A DNA stretch of 64,000 nucleotides from Mayamaea pseudoterrestris (GCA_027923505.1 BROI01000011.1:372001-436000), one strand, 5' to 3'. Shown: positions 404 through 16,883, counted from the first letter of the stretch. Notes: generated from the sequence alone by a model not told the origin. Translations and numbers: made by a program.

Positions 404-952
404 ATGAACTCGTTACATCAAACACTCAAGTGCAGCTGCGGCAAGGTGCAATTTGCAGTCGACTCTCCGTCGGTGCTTCGTCTCGTTTGCTACTGCAAGG
501 ATTGTCGCGGATACGTCAAGACGCTCAACGACAAGGCTGCCAACGTCACAACTCCGCTCGATGATTGGGGCGGCGCTGACTGGAGTAGCATATACCCAAG
601 CGAAATTACAGTCACTCAGGGCAAGGAGTACCTTGCCGTATGCAAAATTCGAGAGAAGAGTGGCATCCGTCGCGTATATGCAAGTTGCTGCCACACGCCC
701 CTCTTTAGCATTGGAGAGATTAGTTGCCTTCTCAACACGCATCTCATAGAAAACGACAAGAAGGCTGACGTTCGCTTTCGTATCATGGGACGACAGGCTC
801 TCACAGGCCAGGGTAAACGACCACCCATTAGCTGGTCGGTCCCACTCAGCTGGTTTTGGACAATGCCGGGGCGCGTTAATAAGGACAAGATGAAGCCGAC
901 ACCGATTGACATCAACGAGCCAAAGATTCTGGAAGGCTTTACGCAGGGATAA
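404..952 (+). CDS. DUF6151 / GFA (Mss4-like, CENP-V-like) zinc-binding protein
   Basis: Intronless ORF from ATG 404. Motifs LKCSCGKVQF, VCYCKDCRGY, GGADW and RRVYASCCHTPLF fit the GFA/DUF6151 Cys pattern. Confidence 0.8.
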   Translation: MNSLHQTLKCSCGKVQFAVDSPSVLRLVCYCKDCRGYVKTLNDKAANVTTPLDDWGGADWSSIYPSEITVTQGKEYLAVCKIREKSGIRRVYASCCHTPLFSIGEISCLLNTHLIENDKKADVRFRIMGRQALTGQGKRPPISWSVPLSWFWTMPGRVNKDKMKPTPIDINEPKILEGFTQG

Positions 953-3102: not shown

Positions 3103-4338
3103 TCATAGCAACACTTCCTCCCGAGACTCGCTGGCATGTTTAAGCAACTCCAGGATGCCAGAGTTTGGCGAGTAGTATTCGGACGGATATTTCGGCACTG
3201 AATCGTCCCACACTGCCTTGGTCGTATCATCGTCGGTCGCGCGCCAGTCTTCGTTCTCTCGTTGCAACGCTCGCACAGCTTTTGACGAAGGAACCAGCAT
3301 GCACAAACGCTCCACGCCGCTGTCGTACACGGGCGAAAACCCATGCGCGCGCAGCAACTCCACAGCCGCCTTAGCATTTTCAAGCTGCGACAGTTGGTGC
3401 AACGTTTCCGTCGGTAGTCCGACGCGATGCGCCGACTCGCTGTTGGCCGCTCGAATGCCGGCTCCCACTAAATGCCGCCGCGTGCCGTCGTTGCTCATGG
3501 CCATGACTAATGGTGGCATGACGCTGACACTCGCAAAACCAAGTTTGCACCAACCAACGCCACCTCCCCAGTCGCGATCAATCTGCGTGACCATGTCGTC
3601 CGGCTCCTGCTCGCGCACAAACGCTGTAATGAGCTTGGTCAAACCTCCCACGACGGTTGTTTCTCGCTGGGTGCAGAACCGGAGCAGCTCGTGCGACTGG
3701 AAAAGCACGTGTTGGCGTAAGATGGTGCGACTGGATGAAAAGGAAGCGGCAGCCACGAGCTCTTCCTCCGTCTTGTCACTTTCCGTAGATACAACAAAGA
3801 GTCCGTAAATATACTTGGCCTTTGTTGCGCCCCAAAGGTGATGTTTCAAAAAGAAGGCTCGAGCAACGTCGTTGGTGATGCGCTTGACAGTAGTTTTGCG
3901 CGCGTAGATGCGCCTCGTTTCCATCCCCGTCTTGACGCGCAGCCGACTCTGCACAATTTCAGTCTGCTGCTGCCAAACGTCTTGGTGCAAGTGGACAATG
4001 TCGAGTGATGATGATGATGATGATGATGTCAATGTCGCAGCATCCGTCATGTGTTTGCAAAGTGACGGCGACATTGGCTTGTAATCATTGTCGTCGCTGC
4101 AAGGCATTGGCGATGGAATGACATGGAGTAGAAACTGACGAGAGTTTCCAACCTCTAGCACATTATACCGGCCAAGAGGAAACTCGTTGGAAAGTTTCCA
4201 TGTAATTGACTGCTGATCCAACCAGCTTGTCACCGTTGTCCCAAACGGAAGTGCAGTGGCCGACTGGTAGACGGAACGAACCGATAGTGCGAAACTTGTC
4301 GAGACGAGACGAAACAACAAGACTCGTTTGAACAGCAT
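3103..4338 (-). CDS. Bacterial/phage-type protein: degenerate Vsr/DUF559-like segment followed by GNAT-like domain; possible signal/plastid-targeting N-terminus
   Basis: 411-aa intronless ORF. Motifs IVHLHQDVW..IVQSRL, RIYARKT, FFLKHHLWG, YIYGLF, ELVAAASFS, HELLRFC, VVGGLTKL, PDDMVTQIDRDW and KLGF. Hydrophobic N-terminus ending TSFA-LS. Confidence 0.7.
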   Translation of the reverse strand: MLFKRVLLFRLVSTSFALSVRSVYQSATALPFGTTVTSWLDQQSITWKLSNEFPLGRYNVLEVGNSRQFLLHVIPSPMPCSDDNDYKPMSPSLCKHMTDAATLTSSSSSSSLDIVHLHQDVWQQQTEIVQSRLRVKTGMETRRIYARKTTVKRITNDVARAFFLKHHLWGATKAKYIYGLFVVSTESDKTEEELVAAASFSSSRTILRQHVLFQSHELLRFCTQRETTVVGGLTKLITAFVREQEPDDMVTQIDRDWGGGVGWCKLGFASVSVMPPLVMAMSNDGTRRHLVGAGIRAANSESAHRVGLPTETLHQLSQLENAKAAVELLRAHGFSPVYDSGVERLCMLVPSSKAVRALQRENEDWRATDDDTTKAVWDDSVPKYPSEYYSPNSGILELLKHASESREEVLL

Positions 4339-4599
4339 GTTTCAGCAATCAGCTGGTCCTGTACTCGATCTATGGAAAGTAAAGTGTTGCCATGATGGCA
4401 GCTTTCGTCAACTTTGTGACATGCCAAATCGAATGGCGAGAAGGTTAAACAAGGGGACCTTACGGTCCGTGGCACTGACCCCCCCCCTCTCCGGGGGCGG
4501 GGGCCGGGAAGTCGCGAGCGGGCAATAGAACTCGACAAAACATGGTACAATATCGTAACTTGTCTGACTTGTCTGTCTTGTCTGGTGTGGAGCATACAA

Positions 4600-6606
4600 A
4601 ACAGACTGGGCTTGGCTTGATGGCACACTTGGTGGCATGCTGCTGAAGTGAGTGCTGAAGACAGTCCCAGACTTGGAGCCACAAAGGATGGCAGGCTTGA
4701 TGCTGCACTGGGAAGGAGACTACTGTAGGTCCTATGCCAGGTGACACACTGGGCTTGGCACTTGGGTCACTAGATGGCCAACTTGGTGGCATGCTGCTGA
4801 ACTGAGTGCTGGGGACAGACTTGGAGCCACAAAGGATGGCAGCCTTGATGCTGCACTGAAGGAGACTGGGTCCTGCGCTAGGTGACGCACTGGGCTTGGC
4901 GCTTGGTTCACTTGATGGCACACTTAATGGCAAGCTGCAGGGCTGAGTGCTAACATCAAACTGGGAGCGGTAGAGGAGGACGAACTTGATGCGACACCGG
5001 GAAGGAGACTGGGTCCTGCGCTAGGTGACGCACTGGGCTTGGTGCTTGGGTCACTTGATGGCACTCTTAATGGGAAGCTGCTAGGTTGAGTACTGGGAGA
5101 CAACCACAAAGGTGTGGTGGTTTATGCTCCAGGTGTCTTTGATGACAAGTTGGCTTTCCAGGAGATTGGTTCCATCACTAGGTGACACACTGGGCTTGGC
5201 ACTTGGGTTGCTCAATGGCCCACTTGATGGCAAGCTGCTATAGTGAGAGTGCTGGAATCAAACTGGGAGCCAGAGGAGGACAAACTTGATGCGGCACTGG
5301 GAAGGAGACTGGGTCCTGCGCTAGGTGACGCACTGGGCTTGGCACTTGGGTCACTTGATGGCACACCTAATGGCACACCTGATGGCACACTTGATGGCAA
5401 GCTGCAGGGGTGAGTGCTAACTGACGCACTGGGCTTGGCGCTTGGGTCACTTAATGGCACACTTATTGGTAAGCTGCTAGGTTGAGTGATGGGAGACAAT
5501 CACAAAGGTGTGGTGGTTGATGCTCCCGCTGTCCTTGATGACAAGTTGGCTTTCCAGGAGACTGGTTCCAGCACTAGGTGACGCACTGGCTTGGCACTTG
5601 GGTTGCTCAATGGCCGCTTGATGGCAAGCTGCTATAGTGAGAGTGCTGGAATCAAACTGGGAACCACAGAGGAGGACAAACTTGATGCGGCACTGGGAAG
5701 GAGACTGGGTCCTGCACTAGGTGACACACTGGGCTTGGCGCTTGGGTCACTTAATGACACACTTATTGGCAAGCTGCTAGGTTGAGTGCTGGGAGACAAC
5801 CACAAAGGTGTGGTGTTTGATGCTCCTGCTGTCCTTGATGACAAGTTAGCTTTCCAGGAGACTGGTTCTAGCACTAGTTGACACACTGGGCTTGGCACTT
5901 GGGTTGCTCAATGGCCCACTTGATGGCAAGCTGCTATAGTGAGAGTGCTGGAATCAAACTGGGAGCCACAGAGGAAGACAAACTTGATGCGGCACTTGGA
6001 AGGAGACTGGGTCCTGCGCTAGGTGACGCACTGGGCTTGGCGCTTGGGTCACTTAATGGCACACTTATTGGCAAGCTGCTAGGTTGAGTGATGGGAGACA
6101 ATCACAAAGGTGTGGTGGTTGATGCTCCCGCTGTCCTTGATGACAAGTTGGCTTTCCATGAGACTGGTTCCAGCACTAGGTGACGCACTGGCTTGGCACT
6201 TGGGTTGCTCAATGGCCGCTTGATGGCAAGCTGCTATAGTGAGAGTGCTGGAATCAAACTGGGAACCACAGAGGAGGACAAACTTGATGCGGCACTGGGA
6301 AGGAGACTACTGTAGGTCCTATGCCAGGTGACACACTGGGCTTGGTGCTTGGGTCACTTGGTGGCACACTTAATGGCATACTTGATGGCAAGCTGCAGGG
6401 GTGAGTGCTAAGTCAAACTGGGAGCCACAAAGGAGGACAAACTTGATGCGGCACTGGGAAGGAGACTGGGTCCTGCGCTAGGTGACGCACTGGGCTTGGC
6501 GCTTGGGTCACTTGATGGCACACTTAATGGCAAGCTGCTAGGTTGAGTGCTGGGAGACAACCACAAAGGTGTGGTGGCAGACGCTCCAGCTGTCCTTGGT
6601 GACAAG
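4600..6606 (-). repeat. Degenerate ~300-bp tandem array encoding PSxxPS Ser/Pro-rich repeats (pseudogenised)
   Basis: gagagtgctggaatcaaactggga recurs at about 5244, 5641, 5941 and 6241. The minus strand reads SVPSSDPSAKPSASPSAGPSLLPSAASSLSS in many short ORFs broken by stops and frameshifts. Confidence 0.9.
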
Positions 6607-6647: not shown

Positions 6648-6976
6648 ATTATATACCTCAATCTGTGGACATCTGATGAAGGCAGCATGGTAAAAAATTG
6701 ATGCTGTAACTTTTACAGCATATTGTTATCTTCATCCTTATTCAAACCGCTTTCTAATTGTCTTTATGTAGTTGCCATCCGACCAATTTCAGGCTGTATT
6801 TGGCTGTCTGATTATATACCTCAATCTGTGGACATCTGATGAAGGCAGCATGGTCAAAAATTGATGCTGTAACTTTTACAGCATATTGTTATCTTCATCC
6901 TTATTCAAACCGCTTTCTAATTGTCTTTATGTAGTTGCCATCCGACCAATTTCAGGCTGTATTTGGCTGTCTGATT
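6648..6976. repeat. Near-perfect 163-bp tandem duplication
   Basis: attatatacctcaatctgtggacatctg...tttggctgtctg at 6648-6810 is repeated at 6811-6973. Confidence 0.95.
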
Positions 6977-13991: not shown

Positions 13992-16883
13992 CTAGTTTGT
14001 ACGTGCGCGTTGACGCTGATCTACCCAACTCTCGTCGGTAGTATCGCGACACTTCTCAATTTCATGCCAGATGTGCCGCGTGGTGGGAATTCCGAGCTTC
14101 TTCATCTGCGCCAGTACTTTGTGTGCCTTTTTCGCCTTGTTAGGCGTGTTGCTGCGACTGAGAACACGAAGATACGCAAGGAAAGTGGCAACGGTGGGTC
14201 CTGCTTGAGATAAGCAGTCGGCTAATAATGATTGCGCACGATCCCATGTCTCGTCATTAGGATTTAGCTCGAGCGCAGAGAAACAGATAGTGTACGTGGC
14301 AACATCTGGTTTCGATTCACGGGAACCAAGTGCTTGCATCTTGCGGAGAATTTCTTCCGATCGAGTATTGGCATTGACCGCCTTCGACTGAACGAGCGCT
14401 TTTAATAGTGCATTGTAACAATAAGTGGTAGGGCCCATTCCTGTGTCCTCCATTTGATTCATCAGCTTTTCGATTCCGTCCGGGTCACCATGAGCAGCAA
14501 AGACGTTCATTACAGTCGCGAAATGAAACGGTGTAAGCCGACACATTTTCTCTCCTCCGCGGTGCCGCTCATCGAGTTTGTTTAAATACTCGAGCGCTCT
14601 TTGGGGTGCATCTTTGCGTCGGGAGCGCGACCAAGCATCAAGCACTGTACTGTAAGTCGTAGCATCAGGACAAATGGACGCTGAGTCGCCTAGGCCAAAT
14701 ATGCACTTCTCTTCCATAAGTTTGACAATTTCTTGAGCGCGAATAGGAGCTTCTTTGCGCTTCGACTTGGCCCAGCAGTTGAGCACCACATTGTATGTCG
14801 TCACATCCGGTTTAAGCGTCAAGTTTTGATCTTCGTAAAGCTGCGTCATTAGTTCGAGCATTGCTTCCGCTTTCAACGGTGCATCCCTAGATTGAGATCG
14901 TGCCCATGTTGTCATGAGAGTGTGTAATGTTTCTATCGTCGGCATGGCTTTGGAGTTTCCTCCTTTGACATCGTCGATCATTTGCTGGAAAAGCTTATCG
15001 GCTTGTTTGGCGTCTCCCAATTCTTTCAGGGAATCCAGCATCGCCGTATACAGTCTCACTGTCAAAACACACTGCTGTGCTTGAGCCTGATTGAAGTAAA
15101 ACTTGCAACGCTCTGCGGCCTTTTGGTTGTCGCCCGATGACATTCGCGCCATATTGTTCCATGCCGTCATGAGAGCAACGTAGGTTGCTTCCGTTGGCTC
15201 GAGCAACTCATCGCCATTGTCAAACCGCGTTTTCAAATCTTGGTAGAGTGCTTCCGCCTGTAGCGCCGCCTTGGCGTCTCGTTTGGCCGCCTGGGACCAT
15301 GCCAAGATAGCAATGTTGTACACGTAAACATCGGGTCGAGCGTTGGAGTTTAAACTTTGGTCAGTTGACTCCCACATTTCCTGCAAAATGCCCAGACACC
15401 GATCGGCAGCTCTAACATTCTTGCAACGGGTCAGTGCTTTCATAAGAGTGGTGTACGATAACTTGTTGGGCTGGCTCGTCGCATGAAAATTGTCCTTCAT
15501 TTGCTGCAGCAACTCTTCAACGTAGTCGACAGCTTGTGCATCATTTTGAGCAAGATTTGCCCACGCTTCCATCACCCTATTGTAGTGGTTTGTCCGTGGG
15601 TGAAAAGAAGCAAAGTGTTGGCTTGAACTTTCATCAACGTCTGCGTCGAATGCAAGCTCGCGGCAAACTTTGACAATGTGTATCATGGTTTGCGCCACGT
15701 CTTGCTTGTTTCCGTTGCTGGCATAGAGTGCATTGAGTATGTTGGTCAATGAGGTAGGCTGGAGACAAAACTCTGGCGAAAACGAGCTTGTTCGATAGAG
15801 CGCACAAAGTAGCTCGAGTAGCTGCTTGGTGCGATCGCAGTCACCACTTTTGGCACACGCCGTCATGACGGCGGCAAACATTTGCTGGTCTGGAAGAGCC
15901 TTGGTCGACGGATCATCCAAGTAATTGCGCGATAGTTCCTGCAGCGTATCAAGCGCAACGTCAAGTTGATTGTCAGCAATGAGTATACGAAGATAGTGGA
16001 AGTAAATGATGGAATTTGGTGAGGCGGTCGTTTCTTGAAGTGACTGCAGCAAGCCTTGCGCCTTGATGACGGCAAATCCGTAGGCTTGTTCGTGAATGAG
16101 AGACTCCAACACGCAAGAATATGAGACAATGTCTGGGACAATACTTGTTTCTTGTTTCATTGACTGAAACAGCTCCCAAGCTTCGCCCGGAGCCTTCCAT
16201 TTTGCAAGAACGGTCAAGGCCGCGTTCCAAACGACAAGGTTTGGCGAAATTGGCATCTTGTTGAGAATAACACGCACGTTGCTAGCTGCAAGGCTACGAT
16301 TCGGTGTAACTTTGGACATGAGACTCAGCAATATAGCAAAAGTTGCTTGTATATCTTCGTCATGGTTGTTTAGTTGACCTTGAATCCATTGATTTTTGAT
16401 CCAGTCGCAGACTTGATGAGAAAGATTGCTGACATTCAATAAAGCTTGCGTGCTGTCCTTTTCTTCCCTCCTTTGACGCTCCATCGAAATCTTCCACGCA
16501 TCGAGAGTGTGGTTGAGCAGTTGGAGTCTTTCAGTGACGGGAACCGAGTCGCTTTCTAAAATAGTTTCAAGTAGCTGTTTTGATTGACGCACGGCTGCTT
16601 CGTTCATTGGACGCTGCCGCGTCAACTGCAAGAGCTGCTCGACTGGAGTATACTCTGCCCCATTTTCCAAAGAATCTTCAAGTGGATTGCTAATTGTTGC
16701 ATTCTGGTCCATTAGAGCTGTTGCAAAACATCGCGCATCAGTCGTCCTTGTGACGGTGTATCGATCGTTCCGTCGTCGCGTACGTTTCGTACAAATGCCT
16801 CTTAGCTGACAGCTGCTCGTGGCGTTTAGTCTTTGAGTTACTGTTGAGATTATTCTTCCGGGTATTCGACTACGGGTCGGCAT
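13992..16883 (-). CDS. Pentatricopeptide-repeat (PPR) protein, probably mitochondrial
   Basis: Repeated P(D/N)..(S/T)Y...(L/M).AW motifs (PDIVSYSCVL, PDVYVYNIAILAW, PDVTTYNVVLNCW, PDATTYSTVLDAW). Arg-rich N-terminus with an RCF-A-like cleavage site. Confidence 0.9.
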   Translation of the reverse strand: MPTRSRIPGRIISTVTQRLNATSSCQLRGICTKRTRRRNDRYTVTRTTDARCFATALMDQNATISNPLEDSLENGAEYTPVEQLLQLTRQRPMNEAAVRQSKQLLETILESDSVPVTERLQLLNHTLDAWKISMERQRREEKDSTQALLNVSNLSHQVCDWIKNQWIQGQLNNHDEDIQATFAILLSLMSKVTPNRSLAASNVRVILNKMPISPNLVVWNAALTVLAKWKAPGEAWELFQSMKQETSIVPDIVSYSCVLESLIHEQAYGFAVIKAQGLLQSLQETTASPNSIIYFHYLRILIADNQLDVALDTLQELSRNYLDDPSTKALPDQQMFAAVMTACAKSGDCDRTKQLLELLCALYRTSSFSPEFCLQPTSLTNILNALYASNGNKQDVAQTMIHIVKVCRELAFDADVDESSSQHFASFHPRTNHYNRVMEAWANLAQNDAQAVDYVEELLQQMKDNFHATSQPNKLSYTTLMKALTRCKNVRAADRCLGILQEMWESTDQSLNSNARPDVYVYNIAILAWSQAAKRDAKAALQAEALYQDLKTRFDNGDELLEPTEATYVALMTAWNNMARMSSGDNQKAAERCKFYFNQAQAQQCVLTVRLYTAMLDSLKELGDAKQADKLFQQMIDDVKGGNSKAMPTIETLHTLMTTWARSQSRDAPLKAEAMLELMTQLYEDQNLTLKPDVTTYNVVLNCWAKSKRKEAPIRAQEIVKLMEEKCIFGLGDSASICPDATTYSTVLDAWSRSRRKDAPQRALEYLNKLDERHRGGEKMCRLTPFHFATVMNVFAAHGDPDGIEKLMNQMEDTGMGPTTYCYNALLKALVQSKAVNANTRSEEILRKMQALGSRESKPDVATYTICFSALELNPNDETWDRAQSLLADCLSQAGPTVATFLAYLRVLSRSNTPNKAKKAHKVLAQMKKLGIPTTRHIWHEIEKCRDTTDESWVDQRQRARTN

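Follow-up and report, generated by a model that had tools for sequence, protein, structure and literature searches.

Mom of phage Mu is a GNAT-fold enzyme that transfers a glycyl group from Gly-tRNA to dA in dsDNA, and excerpts of PMC13219725 give H58, Y59, R111, S124, D149, R151 and Y159 as important for it. The same excerpts present TmcA and NAT10 as GNATs that acetylate a base amine of tRNA or rRNA, and these provide a precedent for the reaction we propose below, although both act on cytidine N4, belong to a different lineage and carry a helicase/ATPase module that the diatom protein described here lacks. REase-Mom fusions have been published for jumbo phages, according to a portion of PMC7824862, and the EDxHD nucleases I-Bth0305I and Vsr, with catalytic residues of the D196/H213/D222 type (PMC3239194, in excerpt), have the fold common to the first domain of our protein.

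Hef-like homing endonucleases of T4-like, Campylobacter and jumbo phages (PHROG 3339 and 559) have two domains in the same order as the diatom protein. Hef-like copies occur in 298 phage records, with up to 11 per Campylobacter phage genome, and are annotated as homing endonucleases only, although the Mom-like domain is present in them; the diatom protein, in contrast, has one copy in its window. Bacteroidota proteins of ~270-300 residues, encoded beside or fused with a second miaA, have the same apparently dead nuclease domain followed by a GNAT and the same DRDW motif, but lack the leader and the C-terminal extension of the algal proteins.

Mom-like families were reportedly defined by Iyer et al. 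in 2009 and 2013, who are also said to discuss Mom families fused to REases. In the parts of the texts covered, PMC4738411 and PMC7261163 among them, our literature search returned no paper connecting Mom with algae and none connecting Mom with MiaA; Iyer et al. may list algal members. A review of chloroplast tRNA modifications makes no mention of diatoms in its available sections (PMC8877259), and the Phaeodactylum gene was named in no main text returned by the search; the supplements of PMC5462543 may list the family among plastid proteins common to ochrophytes and haptophytes.

A single two-domain gene in a diatom-like window

The window analysed here is a 64-kb (64,000-nucleotide) stretch of DNA from Mayamaea pseudoterrestris, which contains one copy of a gene of the Hef/Mom type. 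Its ORF encodes 411 amino acids plus a stop on the minus strand (3103..4338), in a region where the plus strand is crowded with stops, and because an in-frame stop lies two codons ahead of the ATG, M1 is the first start in the exon. A preliminary description of the locus had reported a 411-residue ORF with a distinctive series of motifs, all of which we recover, in order: HLHQDVW (116-122), RIYARK (143-148), HHLWG (166-170), YGLF (178-181), ELVAAASFS (193-201), ELLRFC (217-222), VVGGLTKL (229-236), DRDW (254-257) and W-x-KLGF (263-268). It had also called the gene intronless, and contigs of four runs from one study (library type unrecorded) span the ORF without a joint, consistent with the absence of an intron; for three runs covering the ORF, the contig ends at 4402-4417. 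All four runs have T instead of G at position 3714, a strain difference that gives Q209K on the minus strand. The AlphaFold2 model of the protein (P0001) has a mean pLDDT of 90.6 and a pTM of 0.88 (122 sequences).

The flanking genes are eukaryotic (GFA/DUF6151, sulfotransferase, TPR and PPR), the window is diatom-like, and the GC3 of the ORF (0.61) falls inside the range of six neighbours (0.47-0.67). Contamination was rejected on the grounds of the eukaryotic neighbours, this GC3 and the presence of orthologues in named algal genomes. The GFA/DUF6151 protein (404-952, plus strand; Pfam E 3e-11) belongs to a family that is common in bacteria, and the PPR protein (13992-16883, minus strand; 963 residues) has an Arg/Thr-rich leader and is probably organellar. 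Just upstream of the gene, at 4600-6600, lies a degenerate head-to-tail repeat array whose minus-strand frames read as Ser/Pro/Ala-rich repeats and at which the G skew is strong (0.185 over 4001-6000); a near-exact direct duplication of ~165 bases was spotted by eye at about 6650-6975.

An algal family with bacterial and phage relatives

Searches at E<=0.001 found 164 relatives with a word index and 8,507 in an exhaustive comparison with a 50%-representative library; the relatives described here are the best 120 of the former and the best 150 of the latter. Given these numbers and a match of the protein to PHROG 3339 ('homing endonuclease', E 5e-28), the ORF is not a chance reading frame. Pfam, NCBIfam and PDB sequence searches with the protein gave no match. 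The top tier of relatives is algal, with the Phaeodactylum tricornutum orthologue at 45% identity and further named diatom members from Cylindrotheca, Fragilariopsis, Psemu1, Fistulifera, Thalassiosira profunda, Attheya and Extubocellulus, while Prymnesium parvum and Tisochrysis lutea are the named haptophyte members. Thus, the ORF is not a one-off gene of the Mayamaea genome, since its family spans diatoms and haptophytes. The second tier consists of proteins of 230-300 residues that group with named Bacteroidota, and among the matches listed Bacteroidota proteins are the closest prokaryotic relatives (E to 1e-33).

The algal members form one clade in a FastTree tree of 257 rows (SH-like 99), as do 39 rows in a quick IQ-TREE tree of 117 rows (SH-aLRT 100); both trees are unrooted, and 18 of 275 candidate rows were left out for short core coverage. 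The 184 rows that we call algal are so called by membership in this clade, which contains the named algal members. Phage Hef-like proteins form a third clade with support of 99. The kinship with Bacteroidota and phage Hef-like proteins that had been suggested in the preliminary description is borne out by the PHROG 3339 match, the phage Hef copies and the Bacteroidota loci; the best matches are no characterised pan-eukaryotic family, and orthologues are transcribed, with MMETSP entries and with expression values in Phaeodactylum. Single algal members are joined to mTERF (P0175), arylamine N-acetyltransferase (P0135) and PDZ (P0423), and these may be gene-model fusions.

A nuclease fold without its catalytic motif

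Residues 29-140 (3919..4254, minus strand) have a Vsr/EDxHD (PD-(D/E)xK-type) nuclease fold. The modelled region aligns with the catalytic domain of I-Bth0305I (3r3p) at VIA Z 9.9 and an rmsd of 2.5 over 95 of 98 residues, and with a phage Hef nuclease profile at hhalign prob 98 and E 3.5e-13. The earlier term 'nuclease remnant' is apt as far as catalysis is concerned, but the accompanying statement that the nuclease core is not recognisable was wrong, as the whole fold is present. Among rows with enough upstream sequence to be counted, 8 of the 9 from phages keep the Hef motif IExNGxxWH, whereas none of the 54 bacterial and none of the 161 algal rows does, and the D196/H213/D222-type residues of I-Bth0305I have no motif equivalent in the ORF protein. 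From this loss we infer that the algal and bacterial domain is a complete fold that is catalytically dead; an active homing endonuclease was rejected for the same reason. The Hef-like phage proteins, which are 22-29% identical to the ORF protein over residues 112-341, keep D..IExNGxxWH together with long N-terminal DNA-binding regions, whereas the ORF protein has neither, and only a 28-residue leader precedes its nuclease fold.

In place of the motif, H72, H116, H118, D120, W122 and R132 are conserved. H72, which occupies the position of the strand-2 Glu in Hef proteins, is kept in 144 of the 184 algal rows, H116 in 178, H118 in 168 and D120 in 177. These four residues make up a new conserved His/Asp set in the dead nuclease fold, and possibly a metal or RNA site.

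A Mom-related GNAT domain

The second domain (residues ~145-350, with an insertion at about 276-335; 3289..3906, minus strand) was compared with Mom by structure and by profile. Foldseek ranked Mom (8bv8) second at E 6.7e-5, behind Eis at E 3.2e-5, and included NAT10 among its rows. VIA aligned Mom over 162 residues (Z 10.9, rmsd 3.7), the longest alignment of 50 rows, although generic GNATs tie with or exceed Mom in fold score, the best reaching Z 11.9 over 140 residues. The first 20 matches in BFVD were two-domain phage endonuclease-like proteins (E 8e-23 to 1.5e-16), about half of them without a name, and one Mom followed at E 7.6e-9. A trimmed profile of the family's GNAT region matched a Mom profile, built from 13 annotated phage records, at prob 92.9 and score 53, against at most prob 0.8 and score 19 in 20 column shuffles of this comparison; a viral scan with Mu Mom had given only 44 near-identical copies, and the whole untrimmed alignment did not match a single Mom sequence (prob 0.8). 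The Pfam Mom model (PF25680) did not match P0001, which falls below its cut-off, but it matched 4 of 122 aligned family members at E<=0.05 (best 1.5e-4). Taken together, models and profiles support the assignment of residues ~145-350 as a GNAT domain that is kin to Mom of phage Mu and homologous to it at the profile level, in line with the relationship first proposed.

The likeness to Mom extends to the place of the insertion and to much of the active site. Invariant Mom positions are matched by H167, E217, R220, T251 and D254, and perhaps by T234. H167, R220 and D254 correspond to H58, R111 and D149 (13 of 13 Mom proteins each), E217 to E108 and T251 to S146; T234 was equated with S124 by eye from the motif-A spacing, where hhalign places S124 elsewhere. 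Among the 184 algal rows H167, R220 and T251 are present in all, D254 in 183, E217 in 181, and S or T at position 234 in 178. Other positions differ from Mom. Y59 and Y159, each found in 13 of 13 Mom proteins, are replaced by L168 (L in 177 of 184 algal rows) and W263 (W in 181), R151 by D256 (D in 179, with an adjacent R255 in 181), and N121 and N163 by G; Tyr stands at the Y159 position in 56 of 64 bacterial rows (4 duplicates among the 64) and in 9 of 9 phage rows. On these alignments, the Mom-type site is under strong selection, yet differs from Mom's own. Compared with Mom, the algal protein also adds the dead nuclease domain, a leader and a C-terminal extension, and its family is cellular and single copy.

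The C-terminal extension (residues 351-405; 3124..3288, minus strand) has the pattern W..S.P.Y...YYS.N.GI..LL in algal members and is absent from the bacterial consensus. Beyond it, 43 of 184 algal members carry a SAM-binding domain, which is missing in the Mayamaea window and in 141 of the 184, a count that includes partial sequences. The nearest structure to this domain is 3gjy, a probable spermidine synthase (Z 24.6), followed by the METTL13 C-domain (Z 20.5) and true spermidine synthases (Z 17-19), and the domain stays below every NCBIfam cut-off for spermidine synthase.

Predicted plastid targeting

The leader (residues 1-28; 4255..4338, minus strand) has low pLDDT and resembles a signal peptide followed by a short Ser/Thr-rich transit stretch. 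It had been described as hydrophobic and ending in SFA-LS; SFA-LSV is indeed a candidate cleavage site, but STS-FAL is a second one, and the hydrophobicity of the leader is weak (best mean Kyte-Doolittle value over 9 residues 1.84, with 4 K/R in the first 30 residues). Across the family, a hydrophobic N-terminal stretch was found in 90 of 140 Met-initiated algal rows versus 3 of 36 bacterial ones. Applying a crude rule of our own, rather than SignalP, to the 104 algal rows with a hydrophobic stretch at a lower cut-off, we found a (-3,-1) site with F at +1 in 40, versus 19.7 +/- 3.6 in shuffles (0/1000), and with F, W, Y or L at +1 in 72, versus 51.5 +/- 4.5 (0/1000). Many of the algal leaders have very short transit stretches.

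In an excerpt of the PMC4329603 supplement, the Phaeodactylum orthologue Phatr2a_48772 is SignalP-positive and is called 'Plastid, high confidence' by ASAFind. The corresponding Phatr3 model of 945 nt is scored 'Other' and is expressed (PMC5859163, portions of the supplements); this model is shorter and without the leader, and by our reading starts inside the conserved first domain. The gene falls in the PhaeoNet 'green' module, which is rich in repressive histone marks, and not in the plastid module (PMC7596299, in part). A plastid location is nevertheless probable as a prediction for the family and for the Phaeodactylum orthologue, and to this extent the organelle targeting originally suggested is borne out by the N-terminal hydrophobicity, the +1 Phe enrichment and the ASAFind call.

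Bacterial relatives and a second miaA

MiaA is the tRNA A37 N6-dimethylallyltransferase, which prenylates adenosine A37 at N6. Genomes were scanned with a profile built from 39 bacterial-type members, a query biased to Bacteroidota, and of the 439 confirmed loci the best 80 were used for neighbourhoods; all 80 are Bacteroidota by title, and many are from Larkinella or Runella. The commonest neighbour of the bacterial GNAT gene was miaA (TIGR00174 above cut-off), found as the next gene downstream in 38 of these best 80 loci, one gene further in 5 and absent in 37. An adjacent miaA lies on the same strand as the GNAT gene, and often overlaps or abuts it. Two miaA genes were present in 5 of 5 genomes searched, and the neighbour was the lower-scoring, more divergent copy in 3 of 3 where it was adjacent.

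The two genes also tend to be present or absent together, although genomes within an order are related and the counts therefore do not represent independent events. In an even sample of 101 Sphingobacteriales genomes (the order of Pedobacter) 60 had both genes, 41 neither and none was discordant, the pairs being nearly all linked. Among 121 evenly sampled Cytophagales (the order of Runella) 23 had both, 93 neither, 4 the GNAT gene only and 1 the second miaA only, an agreement in 116 of 121. The 23 Cytophagales pairs comprised 8 that were adjacent and 15 that were unlinked (10 on different contigs, 4 more than 400 kb apart and 1 at 6 kb), and it is these unlinked pairs that weigh most, because linked genes are lost together. 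In an even sample of 251 Bacteroidota the GNAT gene occurred in 3 genomes, with both non-centre positives adjoining miaA2, and a strong miaA2-type match in 30; 27 of these 30 were without the GNAT gene, which counts against strict dependence.

At least six one-chain GNAT-MiaA fusions (P0276, P0329, P0344, P0348, P0409 and P0410) were found in the 120 long MiaA relatives listed of 373. They fall at three places in the tree, and one sits in a three-member cluster that is fused throughout; for each single case, read-through of overlapping genes is possible. In four of the six, about 58 residues are missing from the central insertion of MiaA, which we take to be the tRNA-binding part, whereas all 32 aligned free-standing partner MiaAs have the full insertion (131-148 residues) and the R..RA.E stretch. 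MiaA of the GTGKD type is also fused to MiaB in many long relatives (e.g. P0275), and can thus be a tRNA A37 enzyme. The range P0275-P0382 contains many MiaB-MiaA fusions, 600-790 residues long, the named ones from Patescibacteria. At least five proteins among the matches listed (P0268, P0269, P0270, P0272 and P0273, one of them named Bacteroidales) join GTGKD-type MiaA to a RimK-family ATP-grasp amino-acid ligase, which is unrelated to the GNAT and amide-forming. In the same pathway, this RimK-type ligase may take the place of the Mom-like GNAT without being homologous to it.

The bacterial GNAT gene is single copy, with one match per positive genome. The annotated gene clusters around it showed no mobile context, and tRNA genes lay near 2 of 60 loci, which is no enrichment. 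The gene after miaA encodes a polyprenyl synthase in 10 Larkinella loci, and the gene after the GNAT gene encodes a UbiA prenyltransferase in 4 loci. In the Bacteroidales loci L050, L053, L058, L067, L072 and L089, which have no nearby miaA, the GNAT gene precedes a cytidine deaminase gene, and in five of them it follows a deoxyhypusine-synthase-like gene. On the algal side, there is no second miaA within the window, and none of the GTGKD type was seen in the proteome portions of Phaeodactylum and Thalassiosira, where control motifs likewise found no match; the plastid-predicted MiaA of Phaeodactylum is of another type (IGANKP). The bacterial MiaA partner may therefore not have come along to the algae.

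Discussion

What is new here is that the algal proteins have their closest prokaryotic relatives in Bacteroidota, encoded by genes that occur in one copy and are tied to a second miaA. Because these relatives are linked to, fused with and co-retained with a miaA paralogue, we favour tRNA over DNA as the substrate. The organellar DNA or RNA target of the preliminary description is thereby narrowed on its RNA side to tRNA, and its DNA side is now the less favoured. Our preferred reading, held tentatively and at a little short of an even chance, is that the protein is a GNAT transferase of Mom descent which is targeted to the plastid, carries a dead nuclease domain and has tRNA as its most likely substrate.

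Under this tRNA reading, a phage Hef-type ancestor would have combined a Mom-like GNAT with a Vsr-like nuclease that was still active. In one lineage of Bacteroidota both folds would have been retained while the nuclease motif was lost, and the gene would have become tied to a second miaA; one copy would then have been transferred to the ancestor of the algal clade and gained its signal and transit leader, with many algal lineages later gaining the SAM-binding domain. The direction from phage to bacteria to alga is inferred from the loss of the nuclease motif and from similarity on an unrooted tree. In the protein itself, the dead nuclease fold and a basic GNAT cleft might hold the RNA, while H167, R220, T234 and D254 would form a Mom-type site. 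There, an acyl or aminoacyl group in activated form would pass from an aminoacyl-tRNA, as in Mom, or from an acyl-CoA to a base amine, the likeliest position being A37 or its immediate neighbour. Against this reading stand the changes at Mom-required Y59 and Y159 and of R151 to D, the differing hhalign placement of S124, the generic GNATs that tie with or exceed Mom in fold score, the truncated MiaA insertion in four of the six fusions, the 27 miaA2 genomes without the GNAT gene, a GTGKD-type miaA not seen in the diatom proteome portions, and the 'Other' score and PhaeoNet module of the Phatr3 model.

Another way to view the protein is as a DNA modifier of the momylation type, performing charged-tRNA-dependent aminoacylation of plastid DNA at adenine N6 and binding DNA through its dead nuclease fold. 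Its closest characterised relative, Mom, is after all a dsDNA enzyme using Gly-tRNA (PMC13219725, excerpts), the jumbo-phage REase-Mom fusions are described as modification-restriction pairs in the accessible part of PMC7824862, the mean core net charge of algal members (+9.8) is similar to that of phage members, and one member, P0175, is fused to mTERF. However, it is miaA to which the bacterial kin are tied, rather than defence or mobile genes; self-marking would have its purpose from a nuclease that appears dead in every bacterial and algal row counted; and three residues important to Mom are changed, so we consider this quite unlikely. Those same three changes would suit a pseudo-enzyme, in which both folds are dead and an RNA binder steers MiaA in bacteria, or the SAM domain in algae, to its substrate, perhaps replacing the lost MiaA insertion in the fusions. 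Yet the Mom-site residues hardly vary across 184 algal and 64 bacterial rows, a degree of conservation beyond the usual need of binding alone, and most algal members have no SAM domain to steer (partial sequences included in that count), which makes an adaptor role quite improbable as well.

Adenylate isopentenyltransferases lack the central insertion of MiaA, and the fusions with a shortened MiaA thus recall a small-molecule pathway, in which the second MiaA would deliver a free adenine nucleotide or cytokinin-like product for the GNAT to acylate, or the substrate would be an algal amine such as a polyamine. The spermidine-synthase-like fusion partner in algae and the neighbouring polyprenyl synthase and UbiA genes also point this way. 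The neighbours in Larkinella and Fibrella are, however, single-genus synteny, the free-standing partner MiaAs all keep the insertion, and a whole nucleic-acid-binding fold is retained, and we judge a small-molecule substrate unlikely. Very improbable, finally, is a protein or peptide N-acyltransferase, or a secreted or periplastid enzyme unrelated to nucleic acids: the top VIA rows are N-terminal acetyltransferases (Z 11-12), but these tie with Mom over fewer aligned residues and both sequence profiles and BFVD indicate Hef/Mom, and the very short transit stretches of many leaders, which might suit secretion, are set against the +1 Phe enrichment.

How Mom passes an aminoacyl group from a charged tRNA to adenine N6 has been worked out only recently, and this chemistry is described for phage DNA. 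A Mom-like second domain is present in many phage proteins that have been annotated simply as 'homing endonuclease'. The miaA link offers a reason for the two miaA genes of many Bacteroidota. To return to the tRNA reading, its fullest form is that Bacteroidota domesticated a selfish phage element into a two-gene tRNA pathway making an undescribed prenyl-plus-aminoacyl adenosine, and that the Mom half passed to diatoms and haptophytes to make a new hypermodified plastid tRNA base, sometimes finished by a fused SAM enzyme. We regard this extended account as doubtful, though if true it would provide a eukaryotic Mom-type enzyme and a switch of substrate from DNA to tRNA. The question is directly testable, as the genes are single copy in culturable Pedobacter and Runella and in Phaeodactylum (Phatr3_J48772). 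The occurrence across diatoms and haptophytes of a Mom-derived enzyme that seems to be directed to the plastid implies that these algae make a nucleic-acid modification undescribed in the literature searched.
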